In this document: positions 8,622 through 53,151 of the stretch, one piece after another
Position numbering within the stretch: the stretch's first letter is position 1
How the letters are laid out: every line of letters starts with the position of its first letter
NCBI GenBank assembly: GCA_964544915.1
Contig: CAZJDY010000017.1
Coordinates: 6,906-70,905 of the forward strand
Direction of reading: 5' to 3'
DNA length: 64,000 nucleotides
Origin: an uncultured Methanomassiliicoccaceae archaeon
GTDB lineage: Archaea; Thermoplasmatota; Thermoplasmata; Methanomassiliicoccales; JACIVX01
Program-made: the position numbers and the translations under genes
Notes under the pieces: generated by a model
Told to the model about the DNA's origin: nothing
Database searches by the model: none
Seen by the model: the letters and a program-made list of their open reading frames with translations, nothing else

Positions 8622-10341
<1,720 letters not shown>

Positions 10342-13119
10342 TTACTCCTCCCCTCCGCTCTCGAACTCGGGCTCCTCGAACTCCTCTTCATCTTCCGTCT
10401 CCAGATTAAGGTCCTTCTCGATCGTCGCGTAGCCCGCCAGCTTCTTCTCCTCGATCTTCGCTAGCAACTCCGCCTCATCCCCGAGGACTTCGATGAGCAG
10501 ATCGTCGACGTCGACGGCGTCCCCCTGGACGCTCCTGCACGGGTCGACGCCATCCTCTCCGTATTTGAACTGGACGACCATGTCGGCGGTGTTCCTGACC
10601 GTGCCGTCCTGCTTCAGCTTCAAATCCTCCAGCGCGTTGATCAGCCTGCGCTGCATGTAACCGGACCTGGATGTCCTGACAGCGGTGTCGACGAGACCCT
10701 CACGACCTCCCATGCTGTGGAAGAAGAACTCTGTCGGGGTCAGTCCGCTCTTGTACGAGTTCGTGACGAATCCCCTCGCCTGAGCTCCCAGGTCTCCCTT
10801 CAGGAAGTGCGGCAGAGTCCTGTTCCAGTAACCTCTGGACAGCCTCTCGCCTCTAACGGCTTGCTGCCCGATGCAACCGGCCATTTGGCTCAGGTTGAGC
10901 ATCGAGCCCCTTGCGCCGGACCGGGCCATGATGACGGCCGAGTTCTCAAGACCCAGGTGGCGACCTGCGATCTGTCCGGCCTCATCCCTCGCCCTGCCAA
11001 GAACCTTCATGATCTCGACTTCCAGGGTCTCTTCGAGAGACCTCCCTGGCAGCTGCTCCAGTATTCCTTCGCGGTATGCAGCCACGAGATCGTCGACCCT
11101 TCTGGTCGCGTCCTGCAGGACGTCCTCGATCTGGCGCCTCGCCTCGTCCGGGATGTCCTCGTCGTCGATGCCGGTCGTGAAGCCCCTGACCATGATCGCT
11201 CCGATCGCCAGGCGGGTGAGGTTGTCGATGGCGTTCTTCCCCACCTCCGAACCGTAGTCCCTCGCCAGCTTGTCCACGATCTTACCCTTGAACGCCCCGA
11301 TGGCCTTCTCGTCGATCGTGCCGCAGACGAGCTCGCCCTTCCTTATGCGGACGTACGCATCGAGATCGCACTTCTCCTTCTGGCACTCCGGGCACTTTCT
11401 GCAAATCGATGCCCTGAACGTGATCCTGAAATCTTCCGGCAGCACGAGGGAGAAGAGCTGCTTGCCAGTCCAGTACTTGACCCCGTTGACTTCGATGGGG
11501 TCCGGAACCTCCCGGTGCTTGACCCTCGACAGCATGAACAACGTCTCGCCCCTGGTGAACTTGGAGTCCCTGTGGGTCAGGAGAAAGCATCCGGTGATGT
11601 GGTCGTGTATGGCGCCGATGACCGGGCCCCCGAACCTTGGGGAGAGGATGTGCTCCTGCACCTTCATCAGGATGAGCGCCTCGGCCCTCGCCTCGTCGCT
11701 CTGCAGAACATGCAGGTTCATCTCGTCACCGTCGAAGTCTGCGTTGTATGGCGGGCAGACGCAAAGGTTCAGCCGGAATGTCTTCCACGGCATGACCCTG
11801 ACGCTGTGAGCCATCATAGACATCCTGTGCAGAGACGGCTGCCTGTTGAACAGGACTATGTCATTGTCCATCAGGTGCCTCTCGACTATGAAACCGATAT
11901 CCACGGTCTCGGCGACGCTCTCAGCGTTCTTCTCCGTGACCCTGATCCTCCTACCGTCCGGGCGTATGACGTAGTTGACTCCTGGCAGGTACTTCTCTCC
12001 GGCCGGGTTCGGGCCGCGCTTCACCATCTCCTTCAGGATCTCAATGTTGCTCTTGGTAACGTAGACCGGAATGGTCAGCTCCCTCGCGGCCTCGTACGGA
12101 ACGCCGACCTCGTTGATCGACAGCCCTGGGTCCGGGGAGATGACGGTCCTTGCTGAGAAATTGACCCTCTTGCCTGACAGGTTCGACCTGAACCTGCCTT
12201 CCTTGCCCTTCAGCCTCTGGACGAGCGTCTTCAGGGGCCTTCCGGACCTGTGCCTCGCTGGCGGTATGCCGGAGGTCTGGTTGTCGAAGTATGTCGTCAC
12301 ATGATATTGCAGCAACTCCCATAAATCCTCGACGATAAGTTGCGGGGCGCCGGCGTCCCTGTTCTCCCTCAGTCTCTGGTTGATCCTCAGCACATCCACG
12401 AGCTTGTGAGTCAGGTCGTCCTCCGACCTGTCGCCCGATTCGAGCGTTATCGACGGCCGGACGGTCACCGGCGGGACCGGAAGGGCCGTCAGGACCATCC
12501 ACTCGGGCCTGCAGGCCTTCGGGTCTATTCCCAGAGGAACAAGGTCCTCGTCCGGGATCCTCTCCAGCCGCTCTCTCACTTCCTTCGGGGTGAGCTTATG
12601 CCCGTCCTCCCTGAAGGTGGTGGGCTTGTCCAATGTGATCTTCATCTGCTCTGCGCCGCAGTGCGGGCAGATCGGTCTCGATGCGGCATCCTTCGCGGTC
12701 TCCTTGGAGACGAGGCGGACATCCATCGTGTCCCCGCCCATCTCCTCGACCATCTCCATCGCTTCCTTGTACTCCTTCGCCTGCTCCTCTGTAAGGAGGA
12801 GACGACCACAGGACCGGCAGGTCGATTGCAGCAGCTTCTTGATCTCCTTGACGAAGCCCACGTGTATGACCGGCATCGCCAGATCGATGTGGCCGAAGTG
12901 ACCCGGGCACTCGTCGACCTTGTGCCCGCAGGTCTTGCACCTCAGACCGGGCTCTATGACCCCCAGATGCGGGTCCATCAGGCCCATGTCGATCGGGAAG
13001 CCATCGTCGTCGTATGTGTCGGCGGTGATGATCTTCGTGGCCGACATCCTTCTGACCTCGTCAGGTGACAAGCATGTGAACTTCACAGACCCTATCCTCT
13101 TCGAAACGCCTCGCATCAT
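10342..13119 (-). CDS. rpoA1: RNA polymerase subunit A' (Rpo1N)
   Basis: [11 protein letters not shown] catalytic motif; N-terminal Zn-binding Cys motifs. Confidence 0.98.
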
Positions 13120-16100
13120 CGCAAGTCCTCCAGTTGTAGGCGCACGGCGACGCCAAGCGACAGCAGCTCGTCCAGCAATAGCTTGAAAGCGTACGAGGTC
13201 TGCACGAGGTTGACGTTCGTGTTGTTACCACAGACAGGGCATCTTAGCGCCCCACGTCTGTCCATCATCGCTATGTGACCGCAATTGGGGTTGCCGCAGA
13301 CGTACTGGAATGTACCGTCAGATTCGTCCAGCAGCCGGTCCTTTATGACCATCGCTGCCCCATGTCCTATCAGACAGTCCCTCTCCATCTCACCGAACCT
13401 CAGGCCGCCTTGTCTCGAGCGTCCCTCGGTCGGCTGTCTTGTGAGTATCTGCACAGGCCCGCGGCTCCTCACGTGCAACTTGCCTGAGACCATGTGGTGC
13501 AGCTTCTGGTAGTAGATGACACCGACGAAGATGTCTGCCCCGATCATCTTGCCGGAAAGGCCGTCGTACATGACCTCCTTCCCGGTGTGCTTGAACCCGT
13601 TGCGGATGAGCGACTCTCTCAAGGACCGCTCGCTCTCCCCGCTGAACGGCGTCCCGTCGATCGTGCGGGCCTCCATCGACCCGACCTTGCCGCCGATCAT
13701 TTCCAGCACGTGGGCGACGGTCATCCTCGACGGGATGGCGTGCGGGTTGATTACCAGGTCCGGTATGACTCCGTCCGAGGTGAATGGCATGTCCTCCTGC
13801 GGGGCTATGAGACCGATGACCCCCTTCTGCCCGTGCCTCGAAGCAAACTTGTCTCCGAGCTCTGGCACCCTCTCATCCCTAACCTTCACCTTCACGAGGC
13901 GGCTGCCGTTCTCGGATTCGGTCAACATGACGCTGTCAACCCAGCCGTTCTCTCCAGACCTGATGATGATCGAGGTCTCCCGACGCTTCTGCGGCGTCAG
14001 GAAGTCCGTCTCCTCTTCGAGGAATCTCGGGGGAGACGTCTTGCCAATGAGGACGTCGCCTCCGGTCACGGCGGTCTCTGGGCTGATCAGCCCGTCCTCG
14101 CCGAGGTTGCTATAGGCGAGGTCCGCCCTCGCTCCCCTGACGTCCGGGCTCGGGATCTCGAAATGATCCTCTTGACCTCCTGGATATCTCCGCTCCTCCG
14201 CCCTGTAAGTCCTCATGAAAGTCGAGCGCCCCAATCCCCTCTCCACGCTCGCCTTGTTGAGTATCAGGGCGTCTTCCATGTTATACCCATGAAATGAGAG
14301 TATCGCGACTACGAAGTTCTGTCCAGCCGGGCGCTCGTTGAATGCCACGAAGTCCATCGGCTTCGTCTGCACTAGCGGCTTCTCCGGATAGTGCAGCAGG
14401 TGGCCCCTCGTGTCCGGCCTCTTCCTGTAGTTCGTGGCGCTCAGCCCTAGCGACTGCTTGGCCATTCCAGAGCCCATCGTCACACGCGGAGACGAATTAT
14501 GCTCCGAGTATGGGACCAGTCCGGCGCAGACACCGAGTATGACGATCGGGTCGACCTCCATGTGGGTGTGCTCCTTCGTGATCAGCAGCGGCGTCTTCAT
14601 CTCGCCGTCGCAGTGCAGGCAGCGCAGCAGAGCGAAGTCGTCCTCGGTTCCGGGGTTGATCCAGTCCACATTAGTCTGGGAAATAGCTCTCCCGCAGCTG
14701 TTGCACCGCTCCGGCACCTCGTATGGCTCGACCGCGATGTACGAGTCCTCTTCCTCCTCCGCGTCGACCCACTCGATCACGCCTTCCCTTAGAAGGTCGG
14801 ACCACCTTGACTTGCCCTCCCTAATATCGTCGAGGTGCTTCTTCGTCAGGACTGTCTTGCCGTTCTTGAGGACGACGAGCGGCCGCCTCAACCTGCCTTC
14901 GTCGCAGTTGATTATGACCTCGTCCATTTCCTCATCGTATCGGATGTTGATCTCGTGCGAGAGGAGACCGCACCTGCGCCGGTGCCTTATCTCCGCCACG
15001 AGCTCCTTTGCCCTATCGTGAACGCCGACGAGGTCCCCGTTTACGAAGACCCTCGTCCCGGTCTTCTGCTGCCCCTTGACCTCTTTGACCCCGAGGTCCT
15101 TCAGCAGCCAGTGGACGTTCTCCTCGCGGAATCCCTCTGAGACGTCAATAATCAGGGCCGCGTTCTTCACGAGACCGCAGTTCTGACCTTCGGGGGTCTC
15201 GTTCGGGCAGAGCCTTCCCCATTGTGTCGGGTGAAGGTCTCTCGCCTCGAAGTGAGGCTGGCTCCTGGTGAGGGAGGATGTGATCCTCCTCAAATGACTG
15301 ATAGTGCTCATGTTGGACGTCCGGTCCAGCAGCTGGCTGACGCCCGCCCTTCCGCCGACCCAGTTGCCGGTGGCGAGGGCATGTAGCAGTCGGTGGGTCA
15401 GCAGATCCGGCCTGATGGCGCTCGATATTCTCAGGTCCTTCTTCCTTGCATAGGACCTCTCGAGTTGGTACTTGAGGTCCTTCATGAGGTTCGTGAATGC
15501 GACCCTGAAGAGGTCCTCCATCAAATCCCCGGAGAGCTTGAGACGCTTGTTCGCGTAGTGGTCCTTGTCGTCCTCTTTCCTGAGGCCGAGCGACAGCTCG
15601 AGGACCGACCTTGCTATCCTACCGAGGAAGATCGCCTTCTTCAACCTATCCTCGGGCGTGTCTCCCAGATGGGGCAAGAGGGACCTGTCGATGATCGACT
15701 CGACCTTCTTGACCCTGTATTCCTTCGCCTGACCGGTGGCGAACTTCCTCTCGAGATAGAGGACCGCGTCCTCGGTCGTGAATATGCCGTTCGGCGGGAA
15801 GATCTTCTTGTCCTGGCATTCCTCGATGTTCGCGTAGACAATGTTCGCCATCTCCGGAACGCTGACGATCGCATCGTAGATCTCCTCGTCGCTCTCCATG
15901 CCGAGCGCTTTCATTAGTGCAATAAGTGGGATCTGCCCGGATGCCGCGGGGACGGTGACCATGAGCATGCCGTCCTTCTTCTTCTCAACGAGCGTCAGGG
16001 CGCGGTAGCCTTCCTTCTGTGAGAACACCTTCGCTACCTCTATCTTCGTTCCGTACCGCTCGTTGAACTCGACCATGACCCTGTTGGGCGCTAGGTCCTC

Positions 16101-16709
16101 TAGCGATATCAGGACCCGCTCGGTCCCGCCGATGATGAAGTAGCCTCCGGGGTCCTTCGGGTCTTCCCCGGCCTGTATGAGCCTGTTATTGTACTCCGCC
16201 TCGGTCAGCTCCCTCTCTTCCTCCATGTTCTCTTTATAGAGCGTGCAGCGCTTCGACTTGACCATGATTGGCAGGTCGCCGAGGTGCACCTTCTCCGGCT
16301 CCTTCTCGATTCCGTCCTCCACTATGGTGAATTCGAGGGCGACAGGAGCGAGGTAGTTCAGGTTCCTGAGCCTGGCTTCCATCGGGGTGAGCGAGTGGGA
16401 GGCTCCGTTGGCCTCTCTCACGACCGGAAGCGTGACTTGGATCGTCGGTCTGGCCTGGGGGTCGATGTTGCCTGTCTTCTCGTCCCTTCTGCGGCCGACC
16501 CTGATCTCCACGATCCTCCCTTCGGTCTTGTCCGGGTCGAGGCGGATTATTCCCCGATCGATGTCCTCCGCGGACACACGCAGGTTGTCCACGATCTTCT
16601 GCGTCCTGCTGTTCGGATTGTCAAGCGTGGAGAGGAAGTCGTTGAAGCTTGAGATGTGATGATTGACTATGCTTCGCTCTTTGAAATAGACCTCAACAAG
16701 ATCTCGCAA
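13116..16709 (-). CDS. rpoB: RNA polymerase subunit B (Rpo2, unsplit)
   Basis: [12 protein letters not shown] and [10 protein letters not shown] motifs; single 1197-aa ORF. Confidence 0.98.
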
Positions 16710-16713
16710 AATA

Positions 16714-16977
16714 TCACCCTCTGATTACCAGACGATACGCCACAAAGGTTTCTGCGGTCGGACTTCGCCTTACAATCTTCACAATTCTGCCTCCTTCAAT
16801 CGGACCGTAAATGTTTTCAAGGACTCTTATGCACGCGTCGCTCCGTCGAATCTTCGGAAGCTGATCCATCGTTATCTTCATCGACCTCAAAATCTTATCA
16901 GCCTCTTCCTTCGTGACCAAGTAGTGTTCTGGAACGAGCTCGTGCTCTAGAACATTAAACTCTACAGTATCGACCAA
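16714..16977 (-). CDS. rpoH: RNA polymerase subunit H (Rpo5)
   Basis: HELVPEH and QLPKI motifs; first gene of the rpo operon. Confidence 0.95.
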
Positions 16978-17109
16978 CGTTTCACCTCGCCCCTACGCCT
17001 CGGACCTTCTGGTATACTACGTATTGGAGTTATAAGAACCCATCGCAAACCGCTGCCGGAGACCTCGACACGCATGTCTTTTTCACCTACCCAAGCGGGC
17101 CCGCGGGGA

Positions 17110-17142
17110 TTTTCGGAGGCGACGGCGGGTAACCGAGGCCTT
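17110..17142 (-). other. 33-nt tRNA intron in T-loop (position 59/60) with BHB-like motif
   Basis: TTCG/CGAA 4-bp central helix, bulges AA|A and AA|T, intron helix AGGC/GCCT; the T-stem forms the outer helix. Confidence 0.85.
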
Positions 17143-17181
17143 TTCGAACCCCGGGCCATCTGGTTAAAAGCCAGATGCTCT

Positions 17182-17210
17182 TTCTAGGGATACTTGTTGT
17201 CAAGAATCCT
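17182..17210 (-). other. 29-nt tRNA intron in D-loop (position 20/21) with BHB-like motif
   Basis: CTAG/CTAG 4-bp central helix, bulges GT|A and AA|A, intron helix GGAT/ATCC. Confidence 0.85.
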
Positions 17211-17279
17211 ACCTAGCTGAGCTACGGGCCCTTTGGCAACAAGCCTTGGCGTTGCGGAACTGCGAGTAATCACTATGAT

Positions 17280-17287
17280 TATTTAAA
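17280..17287 (-). promoter_or_regulatory. TATA box for the tRNA-Lys gene
   Basis: TTTAAATA on the minus strand about 50 nt upstream of tRNA position 1. Confidence 0.55.
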
Positions 17288-23768: not shown

Positions 23769-24572
23769 TCACTGGCACCCAACACCGCCTCGACCAGCAA
23801 GATCGTCGAAAAACGCGAGCTTCAGGAACGAAAGGTCTCTTGCGAGCCGAACCTTCCTCCCGAGAGTGGAGGGGCATTCCGTCACGAATTCAAAATCGTA
23901 GACGACGTCCATCAGGACCAGATTCTCAGCTGGCGCGAGCCCGAATGAGATGTCCCTTCCAGACAGAGCCTCCTTGACTTCGCGGACGGTGACTCTCCCC
24001 CGTCCCACCTCGGACATCGCCGCAACGATCCGTCTCACCATGTTCCAGAGGAACTCCCTCGCCCGGAGGTCCGCGATAATGAAATCCCCCACACGGAAGA
24101 CCTCGACCTTGTCGATGGTCCTGACCGTGCCCCTCTCGTCGCCTTTGCAGAACATGCGGAAATCATGCTTGCCCCCAAACTCCGAGGCGCAGGCCGAGAC
24201 CTTGTTGAAGTCCAGGCCACGAACCGGAAGGAAATAGCGGTACCACCTCTGACGCGCCCTCCTGGGAGAGAACTCCTGGGGAACCTCCGCGATGCCATAT
24301 AAGAAGACGTCCTCAGACACAGCGTTCAATGCGCGGAGCATATCGTTCTTGCGGAAGCTTGTGTCGAAGGCGACCACGTTCCCGAGAGCACTCACGCCGC
24401 TGTCGGTCCTACTCGCTCCCTTGAACCTCGCATCATTCGCGGACCGGATCGCGCCTATCTCCCTAAGCGCCCTGAGGACCTCCCCTTCGACTGTCCTTGC
24501 TTTTGGCTGGCGCTGGAAACCGTTGAAATCATCCCCGTCGTAAGCGAGCTTGACGGCTGCCCTCCAGACCAC
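23769..24572 (-). CDS. truA: tRNA pseudouridine(38-40) synthase TruA
   Basis: GFQRQP, ASRTDSGVSA and FLWNMVRRIV motifs. Confidence 0.95.
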   Translation of the reverse strand: MVWRAAVKLAYDGDDFNGFQRQPKARTVEGEVLRALREIGAIRSANDARFKGASRTDSGVSALGNVVAFDTSFRKNDMLRALNAVSEDVFLYGIAEVPQEFSPRRARQRWYRYFLPVRGLDFNKVSACASEFGGKHDFRMFCKGDERGTVRTIDKVEVFRVGDFIIADLRAREFLWNMVRRIVAAMSEVGRGRVTVREVKEALSGRDISFGLAPAENLVLMDVVYDFEFVTECPSTLGRKVRLARDLSFLKLAFFDDLAGRGGVGCQ

Positions 24573-24619: not shown

Positions 24620-25351
24620 ATGCCCCGGTTCAGAGTCGTCCTGGTCAATCCAAAGAACGACGGGAATATCGGAGCCGTGGCCAGAGTGATGGGGAACTTC
24701 GGATTCGACGAGCTCTTCCTCGTCGGCCCCTGCGAGATCACCGATGAAGCGTTCAAGCGGGCGAAGCACGCCGGGGACGTCCTGAGAAATTCGACAATAA
24801 CCGATTCATTCGAGAGGTCCCTAGAATCGTGCTCGCTCGTCGTAGGCACCACCGGGATCATAACGGACAGCGAGAAGCACTTCATCAGGATACCTTTGAC
24901 CCCAAGAGAATTCGCAGAGAAGGTGAGGAAGAGTGATGGGCTGATAGCCCTCGTGTTCGGGAGGGAGGATATGGGCCTCTCGCAAGAGGAGCTCGCTGGA
25001 TGCGATGCTTTGCTCCACATCCCTGCAAGTGACGACTACCGAGTCCTCAATCTGTCCCACGCCGTCGCGGTCGTCCTGTACGAACTGCACCTGCTTGCGG
25101 CGAGAGGGTTCTCCCCTTCGGAGGCGACAGACGTCGAGAAGGAGAAGCTCTTCGAGTTCTTCTCCGACCTGCTGGAGGCGATCGGGTATCCGGAGTTCCG
25201 AAGGGAGAAGACCGAGATCATGTTCCGAAGGATGATGGGCAGGGCAGTCCCGACGAAATGGGAGTTCTACACGATTATGGGCGTGATCGGAGACGCGGTC
25301 AAGAAGATAGAACGCTCAGAGAAGCAGAAGAACCATGAAGATACGGACTGA
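24620..25351 (+). CDS. trmJ: SPOUT tRNA methyltransferase, TrmJ/TrmH family
   Basis: NIGAVARVMGNFG, FGREDMGL and LNLSHAV motifs. Confidence 0.85.
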   Translation: MPRFRVVLVNPKNDGNIGAVARVMGNFGFDELFLVGPCEITDEAFKRAKHAGDVLRNSTITDSFERSLESCSLVVGTTGIITDSEKHFIRIPLTPREFAEKVRKSDGLIALVFGREDMGLSQEELAGCDALLHIPASDDYRVLNLSHAVAVVLYELHLLAARGFSPSEATDVEKEKLFEFFSDLLEAIGYPEFRREKTEIMFRRMMGRAVPTKWEFYTIMGVIGDAVKKIERSEKQKNHEDTD

Positions 25352-44671: not shown

Positions 44672-44743
44672 GCGGCTGTAGTCTAGTGGTTAGGACTGAA
44701 GCTTCCCAAGCTTCAAACTCGGGTTCGAATCCCGGCAGCCGCA
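44672..44743 (+). tRNA. tRNA-Gly(CCC), intronless
   Basis: GCGGCTG/CAGCCGC acceptor stem, GAAGC-TTCCCAA-GCTTC anticodon arm, GGTTCGAATCC T-arm. Confidence 0.95.
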
Positions 44744-44996
44744 CTCACGCATCTAACCAAACAATTATTTTTTAATTTCAATCAAAAGGGAAATGCACCG
44801 CCATATCCAGCAAACCCTTTCCTTTTCTTCCTTTCAAGATTCTGCCACCGCTCCATGCTAGAGGGTCTGCCCGTACCACACCGAGGGGGACCATATTGGA
44901 TGCTCTAGATGACAAATCATTAAGTTATCAGTTGGACTAGCTTAATTCGTACTCGATTCTCACGAATTGAGCGAACAGTATGAGAGGAGTGCTTCA

Positions 44997-52131: not shown

Positions 52132-53151
52132 TTGATCGAGATAGACGGCTCCGAAGGAGAGGGCGGGGGACAGCTGCTACGATGCGCAGTCGCACTCTCA
52201 GCCCTGACTAGCAAGGATGTGAGAGTATTCAATATCCGAGCGGGTCGCCCAATCCCTGGTCTGGCACCTCAGCACCTGACGGCCATCAAGGGCGTTGCAT
52301 CGCTCTGCGATGCGCAGACGGATGGCGCTGTTTTGGGGAGCACGGACATTGTCTTCCGTCCCGGACCCGTGTCTGGAGGCAGGAGGAGACTTGATGTCGG
52401 CACCGCAGGGAGCATCTCCCTAGTGCTCCAGGCATGCATCCTTCCAGCGCTCAGATCCGACAGAGTCACGACGCTCGAGATCACTGGAGGAACGAACGTC
52501 AGATGGTCTCCCCCGATAGATTACTATCTGGATCTGCTCTTCCCGATCCTGAGGAGAATGGGGATTGGGATCCGCATGCACCTGGATGCAAGAGGATTCT
52601 ACCCGGAAGGTGGAGGTAAGATCACTGTCGAAATAGAGCCCTCGACGGGAATCTCCCCGCTCGATCTCCAAGAAAGGGGTTTATTGAAGGGGCTACGGGG
52701 CGTGTGCTTCTCCCAGAACCTGCCCGAGCACGTCTGCAAACGGATCTCGCATTCAGGTAAGAAGGCATTCCTGGACAAAGGCGGGGTGAGTGTAAGAACC
52801 GATGTGTCCAGCGGCAGATCCGCAGGGGCTGGCATATGCTTGTTCGCAGAATATGAGAGGACCGTTCTCGGAGCCGACGCGCTTGGTGAAAGGGGCGTTC
52901 CTGCGGAGAAGGTCGGGACTGATGCCGCCGAGGCGCTCAGGAGGGAGATGACCGGAGTCGGAACGCTAGACGTCCACTCCGGGGACCAGCTTGTCCCTTA
53001 CATGGCGCTGGCTAAGGGCAGGTCGGTGTTCAGGGTAAGGGAGATGACCAGGCACTTGAAGACCCAGATGTGGTTGATAGGCAATTTCCTCGACCCGACG
53101 TTCGATGTGAAGAGCGTCGACGGCGGGTACGAGATTGTCGTCGCTCCCTAA
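52132..53151 (+). CDS. rtcA: RNA 3'-terminal phosphate cyclase
   Basis: IDGSEGEGGGQ, PGLAPQH, RGFYPEGGG and DQL motifs. Confidence 0.94.
   Translation: MIEIDGSEGEGGGQLLRCAVALSALTSKDVRVFNIRAGRPIPGLAPQHLTAIKGVASLCDAQTDGAVLGSTDIVFRPGPVSGGRRRLDVGTAGSISLVLQACILPALRSDRVTTLEITGGTNVRWSPPIDYYLDLLFPILRRMGIGIRMHLDARGFYPEGGGKITVEIEPSTGISPLDLQERGLLKGLRGVCFSQNLPEHVCKRISHSGKKAFLDKGGVSVRTDVSSGRSAGAGICLFAEYERTVLGADALGERGVPAEKVGTDAAEALRREMTGVGTLDVHSGDQLVPYMALAKGRSVFRVREMTRHLKTQMWLIGNFLDPTFDVKSVDGGYEIVVAP

Follow-up and report, generated by a model that had tools for sequence, protein, structure and literature searches.

The tRNA-Lys locus and its host

The window, by which the whole analysed stretch of 64,000 nucleotides (64 kb) is meant, harbors an interrupted gene for tRNA-Lys(UUU) on its minus strand (17096..17231), which measures 136 nt unspliced and 74 nt spliced. 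Read on that strand, the gene consists of GGGCCCGTAGCTCAGCTAGGT, a 29-nt insert, AGAGCATCTGGCTTTTAACCAGATGGCCCGGGGTTCGAA, a 33-nt insert and TCCCCGCGGGCCCG, exactly as a preliminary description of this DNA had it. Exon 1 (17211..17231, 21 nt) comprises the acceptor 5' strand, the D-stem 5' strand and the D-loop through U20; exon 2 (17143..17181, 39 nt) comprises A21, the D-stem 3' strand, the anticodon arm (UUU), the variable loop, the T-stem 5' strand and the T-loop through A59; exon 3 (17096..17109, 14 nt) comprises U60, the T-stem 3' strand, the acceptor 3' strand and the discriminator G73. The two inserts, all on the same minus strand as the exons, interrupt the D-loop at site 20/21 (intron 1, 17182..17210, 29 nt) and the T-loop at site 59/60 (intron 2, 17110..17142, 33 nt), and site 37/38 is free of an intron, a point on which the preliminary description was likewise correct.

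Removal of both inserts at the bulge sites of the predicted fold restores a canonical cloverleaf. The joined 74-nt exons are called tRNA-Lys(ttt) by ARAGORN, which agrees with the spliced product as originally proposed; judged by eye, they form a 7/4/5/5-bp cloverleaf, in which the UUU anticodon sits in a 7-nt loop on a 5-bp stem and the arm lengths are standard. Between 64 and 69 of the 74 positions of the spliced product are identical to the syntenic intron-less tRNA-Lys(UUU) genes of other Thermoplasmata. CCA is absent from the gene, the bases following it being CTT. A TATA-like box, TTTAAATA (17280..17287, minus), precedes the mature 5' end by ~50 nt. In every relative examined, a box of like kind (TTTAAATA, TTTATATA, ATTATATA) precedes the gene by ~45-55 nt; the box of the window is presumably the promoter of the tRNA-Lys gene.

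A distance of 119 nt separates the gene from rpoH-rpoB-rpoA'-rpoA'' downstream of it, and its orientation relative to EF-1beta is divergent. The RNA polymerase operon immediately downstream (8893..16977, minus), composed of rpoH (16714-16977), rpoB (13116-16709), rpoA' (10342-13119) and rpoA'' (8893-10341), each on the minus strand, served as the syntenic anchor for the orthologue search. The best 80 matches of the RpoB encoded here (13116-16709, minus) all belong to Thermoplasmata genomes (bins with a bacterial label account for two), and the highest identity, 86%, is to Methanomassiliicoccales MAGs. The G+C content along the window is 54-60%. As judged by the RpoB matches, the contig is from Thermoplasmata (Methanomassiliicoccales) and from neither Thermoproteota nor DPANN, in line with the thermoplasmatotal origin that had been suggested. 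The only contigs with an identical RpoH are five short ones from Logan metagenomes, and the organism is therefore uncultured. Archaeal rpoB or EndA genes of Methanomethylophilaceae type were also encountered in records with bacterial titles (L021, L052, L222, L228, L237, L238, L244 and L245), among them Firmicutes bacterium CAG:194, Faecalibacterium sp. CAG:74, Eggerthellaceae and Bacteroides salyersiae; these bins are mislabelled or contaminated.

Other RNA-related genes are present in the window. An RNA 3'-terminal phosphate cyclase, RtcA (PF01137, PF05189), is encoded at 52132-53151 (+); this family makes the 2',3'-cyclic phosphate ends that RtcB-type ligation uses. A TruA-type tRNA pseudouridine synthase (23769-24572, -) stands back to back with a SpoU-family RNA methyltransferase (24620-25351, +), the pair being situated 6-8 kb from the tRNA-Lys gene.

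The preliminary description had cautioned that standard tRNA finders may miss a gene of this kind, and both finders used here do: on the genomic sequence ARAGORN does not call the unspliced tRNA-Lys gene, and Rfam leaves it unmatched at the gathering threshold as well as at E<=10. The only tRNA that either of them reports in the 64-kb window is an uninterrupted tRNA-Gly(CCC) (44672-44744, plus; 67.9 bits in Rfam), and neither Rfam at E<=10 nor scans for D-arm and T-loop motifs uncovered further hidden tRNAs in the window. Among the orthologues tested, every intron-less one is called by ARAGORN and by Rfam RF00005 (69-75 bits). ARAGORN calls none of the intron-bearing ones, and Rfam matches just one of them, the T-loop-only gene of L029, in part and at threshold (29.1 bits).

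A gene of this kind may already have been overlooked in M. luminyensis. In that genome tRNAscan, TFAM, ARAGORN and BLASTN detected no tRNA-Lys, an absence that was ascribed to ~17 kb of unsequenced DNA (Borrel et al. 2014, PMC4153887). Because four tools found none (PMC4153887), an easily detectable intron-less tRNA-Lys is not seen in M. luminyensis, and by analogy an interrupted gene such as the present one probably explains the "missing" tRNA-Lys better than unsequenced DNA does. Ordinary tools found 48 tRNAs there, which cover every other amino acid (PMC4153887); disruption thus looks confined to tRNA-Lys. In the genome under study, of which 64 kb were seen, a second, intron-less copy of tRNA-Lys(UUU) is presumably lacking as well.

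Precursor fold, covariation and distribution of the introns

The 136-nt precursor has a predicted folding energy of -61.4 kcal/mol, compared to -43.5 +/- 4.1 for 200 shuffles (z = -4.35), and none of the shuffled sequences (0/200) folds as well. Its centroid structure keeps the acceptor, D, anticodon and T stems and contains two BHB motifs in addition. In intron 1, the central helix is formed by D-loop C16-G18 (CUAG) and a CUAG in the 3' part of the intron. The flanking bulges have 3 nt each (5', G19 U20^a; 3', a a^A21; the caret marks the predicted cut), and the inner helix, GGAU/AUCC, is capped by a CUUG-ACAA-CAAG hairpin. In intron 2, T-loop U54-G57 (UUCG) pairs with CGAA in the 3' part of the intron; the two bulges read A58 A59^a (5') and a a^U60 (3'), AGGC/GCCU forms the inner helix, and a single C facing the 5' bulge is left unpaired.

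A 4-bp helix between two 3-nt bulges on opposite strands is thus a feature of both introns in the centroid fold, and the predicted cuts fall after the second nucleotide of each bulge. To this extent the cleavage by the BHB rule that had been proposed for the gene holds, but neither intron attains the strict hBHBh' form; both motifs are relaxed (BHL-like). The 3' bulge of intron 1 faces the unpaired A14 and G15, which lie between the D-stem and the central helix, so that a 3x2 internal loop results; A14/G15 are opposite this bulge in every sequence compared. The BHB of intron 2, relaxed in the window by the single C, is strict in L010 and others. Overall, the departures from the strict motif are small: each motif retains one canonical bulge and a complete central helix of 4 bp. 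A role of the excised introns as box C/D guide RNAs was considered and dismissed, 29 and 33 nt being judged too short.

For comparison, the tRNA-Lys(UUU) upstream of rpoH was parsed in 70 other genomes using rpoB as anchor. Introns are present at the same sites in 47 of these 70 Thermoplasmata relatives with the same synteny, and 23 have none. The combination of the window, D-loop plus T-loop, was found in 28 genomes; 11 have the 37/38 intron in addition to both; three combine D-loop and 37/38; three have the T-loop intron only and two the D-loop intron only. Among the 23 genomes without intron are Methanomethylophilaceae, Thermoplasmatales and DHVE2. Intron lengths in the relatives range from 24 to 51 nt (D-loop), from 19 to 67 nt (37/38) and from 20 to 40 nt (T-loop). 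Sequence, fold and the 47 of 70 relatives concur in the reading put forward at the outset, namely that this tRNA-Lys(UUU) is interrupted by BHB introns at two non-canonical sites, 20/21 and 59/60.

The intron states were mapped onto a rough RpoB neighbor-joining tree, from which a cluster of long branches (L013, L015, L017, L024, L030 and L040; the ORF is probably wrong) was left out. On this tree the states track clades: the clade of the window has D-loop and T-loop introns, and its sister clades have all three or D-loop plus 37/38. The D-loop and T-loop combination reappears in two more distant clades of Thermoplasmata, one of them with Ca. Natronoplasma. This distribution fits introns that would be old in Thermoplasmata and would have been lost several times (Methanomethylophilaceae, Thermoplasmatales, DHVE2). 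Two peculiarities were noticed in individual records. In L006 (2890-2990; CP070736.1), a MAG designated a complete chromosome, ~100 N just upstream of rpoB render rpoH and the tRNA unreadable; in one Thermoplasmata MAG a 5S rRNA gene (66 bits; L066:45-166) is located ~2.3 kb upstream of an intron-less tRNA-Lys.

The helices of the BHB motifs were tabulated sequence by sequence in 43 relatives for the D-loop intron and in 42 for the T-loop intron. The central helix of intron 1 and the D-loop vary in concert: CTAG/CTAG occurs in 27 distinct sequences, CCAG/CTGG in 7, GTAG/CTAC in 2 and CCCG/CGGG in 2, with one mismatch in a few sequences. In a formal count over a gap-free alignment (36 distinct constructs, 12 pairs), standard pairs occupy 97.7% of cells versus 83.6% in shuffled data, where 0/500 shuffles reach the observed value; when the partner is slid by 1-3 columns, 30-45% of cells are paired. 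Two-sided changes affect 7 of the 12 pairs (58 cells), namely three of four in the central helix and four of four in the inner helix; the D-stem is uninformative in this respect because it never varies. The T-loop intron pairs with an invariant exon side, UUCG, and its own side reads CGAA in 25 sequences and CGGA, with one U-G wobble, in 14 (together 39/42). The inner helices of this intron take many sequences, all of them paired, with 0-2 extra nt opposite the 5' bulge. The 37/38 introns of the sister clades have central helices CUUU/AAAG or CUUU/GAAG. Because the BHB helices covary with the D-loop, the introns are taken to be under selection.

The splicing endonuclease and the proposed maturation of the tRNA

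Searches of the window for EndA by phmmer and tblastn with the M. jannaschii sequence (100% identical to PDB 1A79) gave no hit. A search with a fragment of the A. fulgidus EndA reached 95 candidates, none of which was from Thermoplasmata, and P0074, taken for a Methanomassiliicoccales EndA, turned out to be from ANME-1 (Methanophagales). Thermoplasmata EndAs were found by profile search, and one from Methanomassiliicoccales (P0220) was then used as the query for the best 80 EndA loci. Eight of these 80 loci are from genomes with a parsed tRNA-Lys: in the closest relative, L191, EndA is encoded on the same 851-kb contig as a tRNA-Lys with D-loop and T-loop introns; L196 and L195 have the same two introns, L169 has three, L174 the D-loop intron only, L215 D-loop plus 37/38, and L230 and L237 have none.

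The EndAs of the eight genomes are orthologous and have 347-351 aa, the length being constant in intron-bearing (n=6) and intron-free relatives. Those of L191, L169 and L230 contain PF02778 and PF01974 twice each, i.e. two tandem units in one chain. The catalytic Tyr/His/Lys triad, equated with Y115/H125/K156 of M. jannaschii, is confined to the C-terminal unit (HFR[VA]Y, H[AS]xYL and GV[KR]K in 13/13 sequences); a His at the matching place of the N-terminal unit is absent in the 13 sequences. By its domains and the placement of the triad, the Thermoplasmata EndA is an enzyme of the two-unit alpha'2-type architecture, from which assembly into a dimer would be expected. Its best sequence matches in the PDB are the fused beta-alpha protein of M. 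kandleri and the A. fulgidus EndA. Within the aligned region, alpha subunits of Crenarchaeota exceed the Thermoplasmata EndA by 8-12 residues and M. jannaschii EndA exceeds it by 1; the segment from FRxY to the catalytic His has 7 residues in all 77 readable Thermoplasmata EndAs versus 14 in ARMAN-2. Sequence comparison revealed no insert near the active site corresponding to a broad-specificity loop (CSL/L1, ASL/L2, L3), at positions that, in part, we presume to be those of the specificity loops. The loop positions are otherwise those of PMC5829648.

The C-terminal 10 residues (L167-L246) fall into two types: ...K/E/T-R-V/T-R-P in 55 loci of Methanomassiliicoccaceae and other Thermoplasmata, and ...F-K-W-F-R/K-P in 25 loci from the Methanomethylophilaceae, a clade free of tRNA-Lys introns. 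The bulge-clamping residue near the C-terminus may be the one affected by the Arg/Trp change. The correlation of this change with the introns proves nothing, because it represents one phylogenetic event.

The locus very probably is a functional single-locus tRNA-Lys(UUU) gene with its own TATA-type promoter and BHB-folded introns, which would be removed by EndA cleavage and RtcB-type ligation and would be old in Thermoplasmata. Transcription from the promoter would yield a ~160-nt precursor, in which the 3' end of each intron would pair with the loop that it interrupts, generating a 4-bp helix flanked by two 3-nt bulges. EndA would then cleave each bulge after the second nucleotide, an RtcB-type ligase would join GGU^AGAGC and UUCGAA^UCCCC with release of both introns, and CCA would be added after ligation. 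Transcription, cleavage and ligation of the precursor presumably take place, and the alpha'2-type EndA, rather than another enzyme, presumably does the cutting.

The assignment of the enzyme bears on what is established for EndA. One study reserves the cleavage of non-canonical introns for (alpha-beta)2 and epsilon2 EndAs (PMC5829648). According to the same source, the inserted loops L1-L3, and not the subunit type, go with disrupted tRNA genes, and Cluster II Euryarchaeota encode alpha'2 EndA only (PMC5829648); EndAs with specific inserted loops have also been tied to the cleavage of non-canonical introns (PMC5829648; PMC3239211). The gene could be real and spliced, but by other means: by an undetected second EndA subunit or broad paralogue, or in a stepwise pathway involving other RNases. 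We regard this as unlikely. Both BHBs do deviate from the strict motif, published assays find loop-less alpha'2 and alpha4 enzymes to be narrow (PMC5829648; PMC3239211), and the search, built on peptide patterns of one protein and the best 80 loci, would let divergent paralogues or subunits escape. However, not one genome among the 80 loci has two EndA loci, the EndA is orthologous and of constant length whether or not introns are present, and the deviations of the BHBs, each with a canonical bulge and an intact central helix, are slight. Should the 351-aa protein be the sole EndA, mildly relaxed motifs at two non-canonical sites must be within its range.

A decaying tRNA pseudogene with two insertions, the working tRNA-Lys(UUU) being encoded elsewhere, is a very improbable reading. 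The analysis covers a 64-kb window, leaving room for a copy elsewhere, and the standard finders pass the gene over. A pseudogene would nevertheless hardly have nearly invariant exons, nor would its inserts occupy the same pair of phosphodiester bonds in several clades (47 of 70 genomes). Compensatory changes keep the intron helices, which neutral decay would not do, the promoter-like box is conserved, and no other tRNA-Lys was detected in M. luminyensis (PMC4153887). A chance resemblance to a split tRNA or an assembly artefact, for which nothing speaks beyond the fact that no tool calls the gene, can practically be discarded, as all 74 exon bases form a perfect cloverleaf and the locus recurs in independently made assemblies, among them five Logan contigs that carry identical rpoH with the same gene-free gap upstream, and in dozens of MAGs. 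Taken together, fold, shared sites, covariation and the conserved TATA-like box argue strongly against both pseudogene and chance match.

Relation to other archaeal tRNA introns and implications

Thermoproteales, Thaumarchaeota, ARMAN-2 and other DPANN are well known to have BHB introns at non-canonical positions, with as many as three in a gene (PMC8450103; PMC3239211; PMC5829648). The introns of the window resemble those of Thermoproteales, other Crenarchaeota and Thaumarchaeota in being short BHB introns at non-canonical sites, with motifs that are often relaxed (PMC8450103; PMC3239211). In crenarchaeal multi-intron tRNAs, as in the window, base pairing between the exon and the 3' end of the intron creates the central helix. 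The intron positions recorded from Crenarchaeota include sites in the D-loop and T-loop, for instance 59/60. The two systems differ in extent and in enzyme: in Thermoproteales most tRNA genes are affected, with 0.84 introns per gene (PMC8450103), whereas in the Thermoplasmata studied here it is one tRNA species, and the (alpha-beta)2 EndA of Thermoproteales has a CSL loop, which the alpha'2-like EndA of Thermoplasmata lacks. The only groups that the tRNAscan-SE 2.0 paper names are Crenarchaeota and Thaumarchaeota (PMC8450103).

The canonical 37/38 introns of Euryarchaeota rely on the same BHB principle and family of enzymes, and the sister clades of the window carry one in this very gene; the gene of the window, in contrast, has no 37/38 intron and two introns in the loops that form the tRNA elbow. 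The alpha'2 EndAs of A. fulgidus (1R0V/2GJW) and T. acidophilum (2OHC) likewise consist of tandem units with the catalytic Y/H/K in the C-terminal one only, but have 305 and 289 aa, respectively, compared to ~350 aa with a complete N-terminal unit in the Thermoplasmata EndA. Characterised alpha'2 EndAs are listed as narrow in specificity (PMC6379350); unlike them, the Thermoplasmata EndA would have to accept 3x2 and 3x1 internal loops in place of a bulge.

A parallel in intron positions comes from DPANN. The tRNA-Lys(CUU) gene of a Woesearchaeota genome (L296:6823-6990) has introns in the D-loop at ~20/21, at 37/38 and at 59/60, and the same three positions are interrupted in the tRNA-Lys(CUU) of Micrarchaeia (L325, minus, ~1308 in reverse-complement coordinates), of Aenigmatarchaeota (L251:5645-5790) and of three other DPANN MAGs (L350, L349, L352). 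These genes share the loop-to-intron pairing with the Thermoplasmata gene, the D-loop CCUG pairing with an intron CAGG. They differ in anticodon (CUU versus UUU), in phylum and in the EndA, which in DPANN is alpha4, (alpha-beta)2 or epsilon2 with L2/L3 loops (PMC5829648) as opposed to the alpha'2 type of Thermoplasmata. A tRNA-Lys(CUU) with D-loop and 37/38 introns was also seen in two MAGs labelled Methanosarcinales (L279, L285); DPANN contamination of the L285 bin is likely, because the design is nearly identical to that of the Woesearchaeota gene in L296.

These comparisons modify the preliminary description in its widest claims. It had credited the lineage with a multi-intron tRNA system of its own, which is not borne out: one gene is shown to be interrupted, tRNA-Gly(CCC) is intact, and the 48 tRNAs of M. 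luminyensis were all recovered with ordinary tools (PMC4153887). Nor is the architecture special to the lineage, since it extends over several deep clades of Thermoplasmata, often with a third intron at 37/38, and uses the same positions as the tRNA-Lys(CUU) of DPANN. As to whether it is routine in described Thermoplasmatota, a question raised at the same time, it is routine in the genomes. Among the papers that could be searched, none describes tRNA-Lys introns in Thermoplasmata. The kind of intron is known; new is a conserved, gene-specific multi-intron tRNA-Lys across Thermoplasmata alongside an alpha'2 EndA.

A loose D-loop-intron pattern for tRNA-Lys(CUU) had at least 120 matches; no Thermoplasmata is among the matches listed, which include many bacterial chance ones and, as archaeal ones, DPANN, Thaumarchaeota and Asgard. 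A strict pattern copying the intron ends of the window had 0 matches in JGI metagenomes, and tRNA-Lys(CUU) was not found in the fetched Thermoplasmata loci. In the lineage of the window this tRNA may be absent or interrupted in another way. As introns might protect attachment sites, IMG/VR was searched for integrating elements targeting the tRNA: the exact spliced 3' half is absent from it, and a looser pattern retrieved one viral contig with the 3' half of some tRNA-Lys(UUU), which has no link to Thermoplasmata. In L369 (3930-4003; IMG/VR UViG_645948402_000001), a viral or proviral sequence, only the anticodon arm, T arm and acceptor 3' strand of a tRNA-Lys(UUU) plus CCA are present, and the sequence in front of them is unrelated, as would be the case where an element has integrated.

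A broader proposal, which we make tentatively and with more doubt than confidence, is that a loop-less alpha'2 EndA routinely cuts relaxed D-loop and T-loop BHBs and, at the same time, that the three-intron tRNA-Lys (20/21, 37/38, 59/60) is one ancient architecture of Thermoplasmata and DPANN and did not arise by independent gains. If this were true, the rule that limits non-canonical introns to (alpha-beta)2, epsilon2 or loop-bearing EndAs would be wrong for Thermoplasmata. Conserved relaxed introns at non-canonical sites, together with a loop-less EndA as the sole one detected, constitute a natural test of the substrate range of EndA; M. luminyensis is in culture, which makes such a test feasible, and the interest of the system would rise if the loop-less alpha'2 enzyme were shown to cut these sites. 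Among close families, a single orthologous gene at a fixed locus has three, two or no introns, a clean difference that also provides a good system for studying the gain and loss of tRNA introns. At the intron-bearing Thermoplasmata loci tested, ARAGORN and Rfam fail to call an essential tRNA, which leaves an annotation gap, and correct tRNA sets underpin completeness checks, codon-usage analyses and studies of pyrrolysine and recoding in Methanomassiliicoccales.
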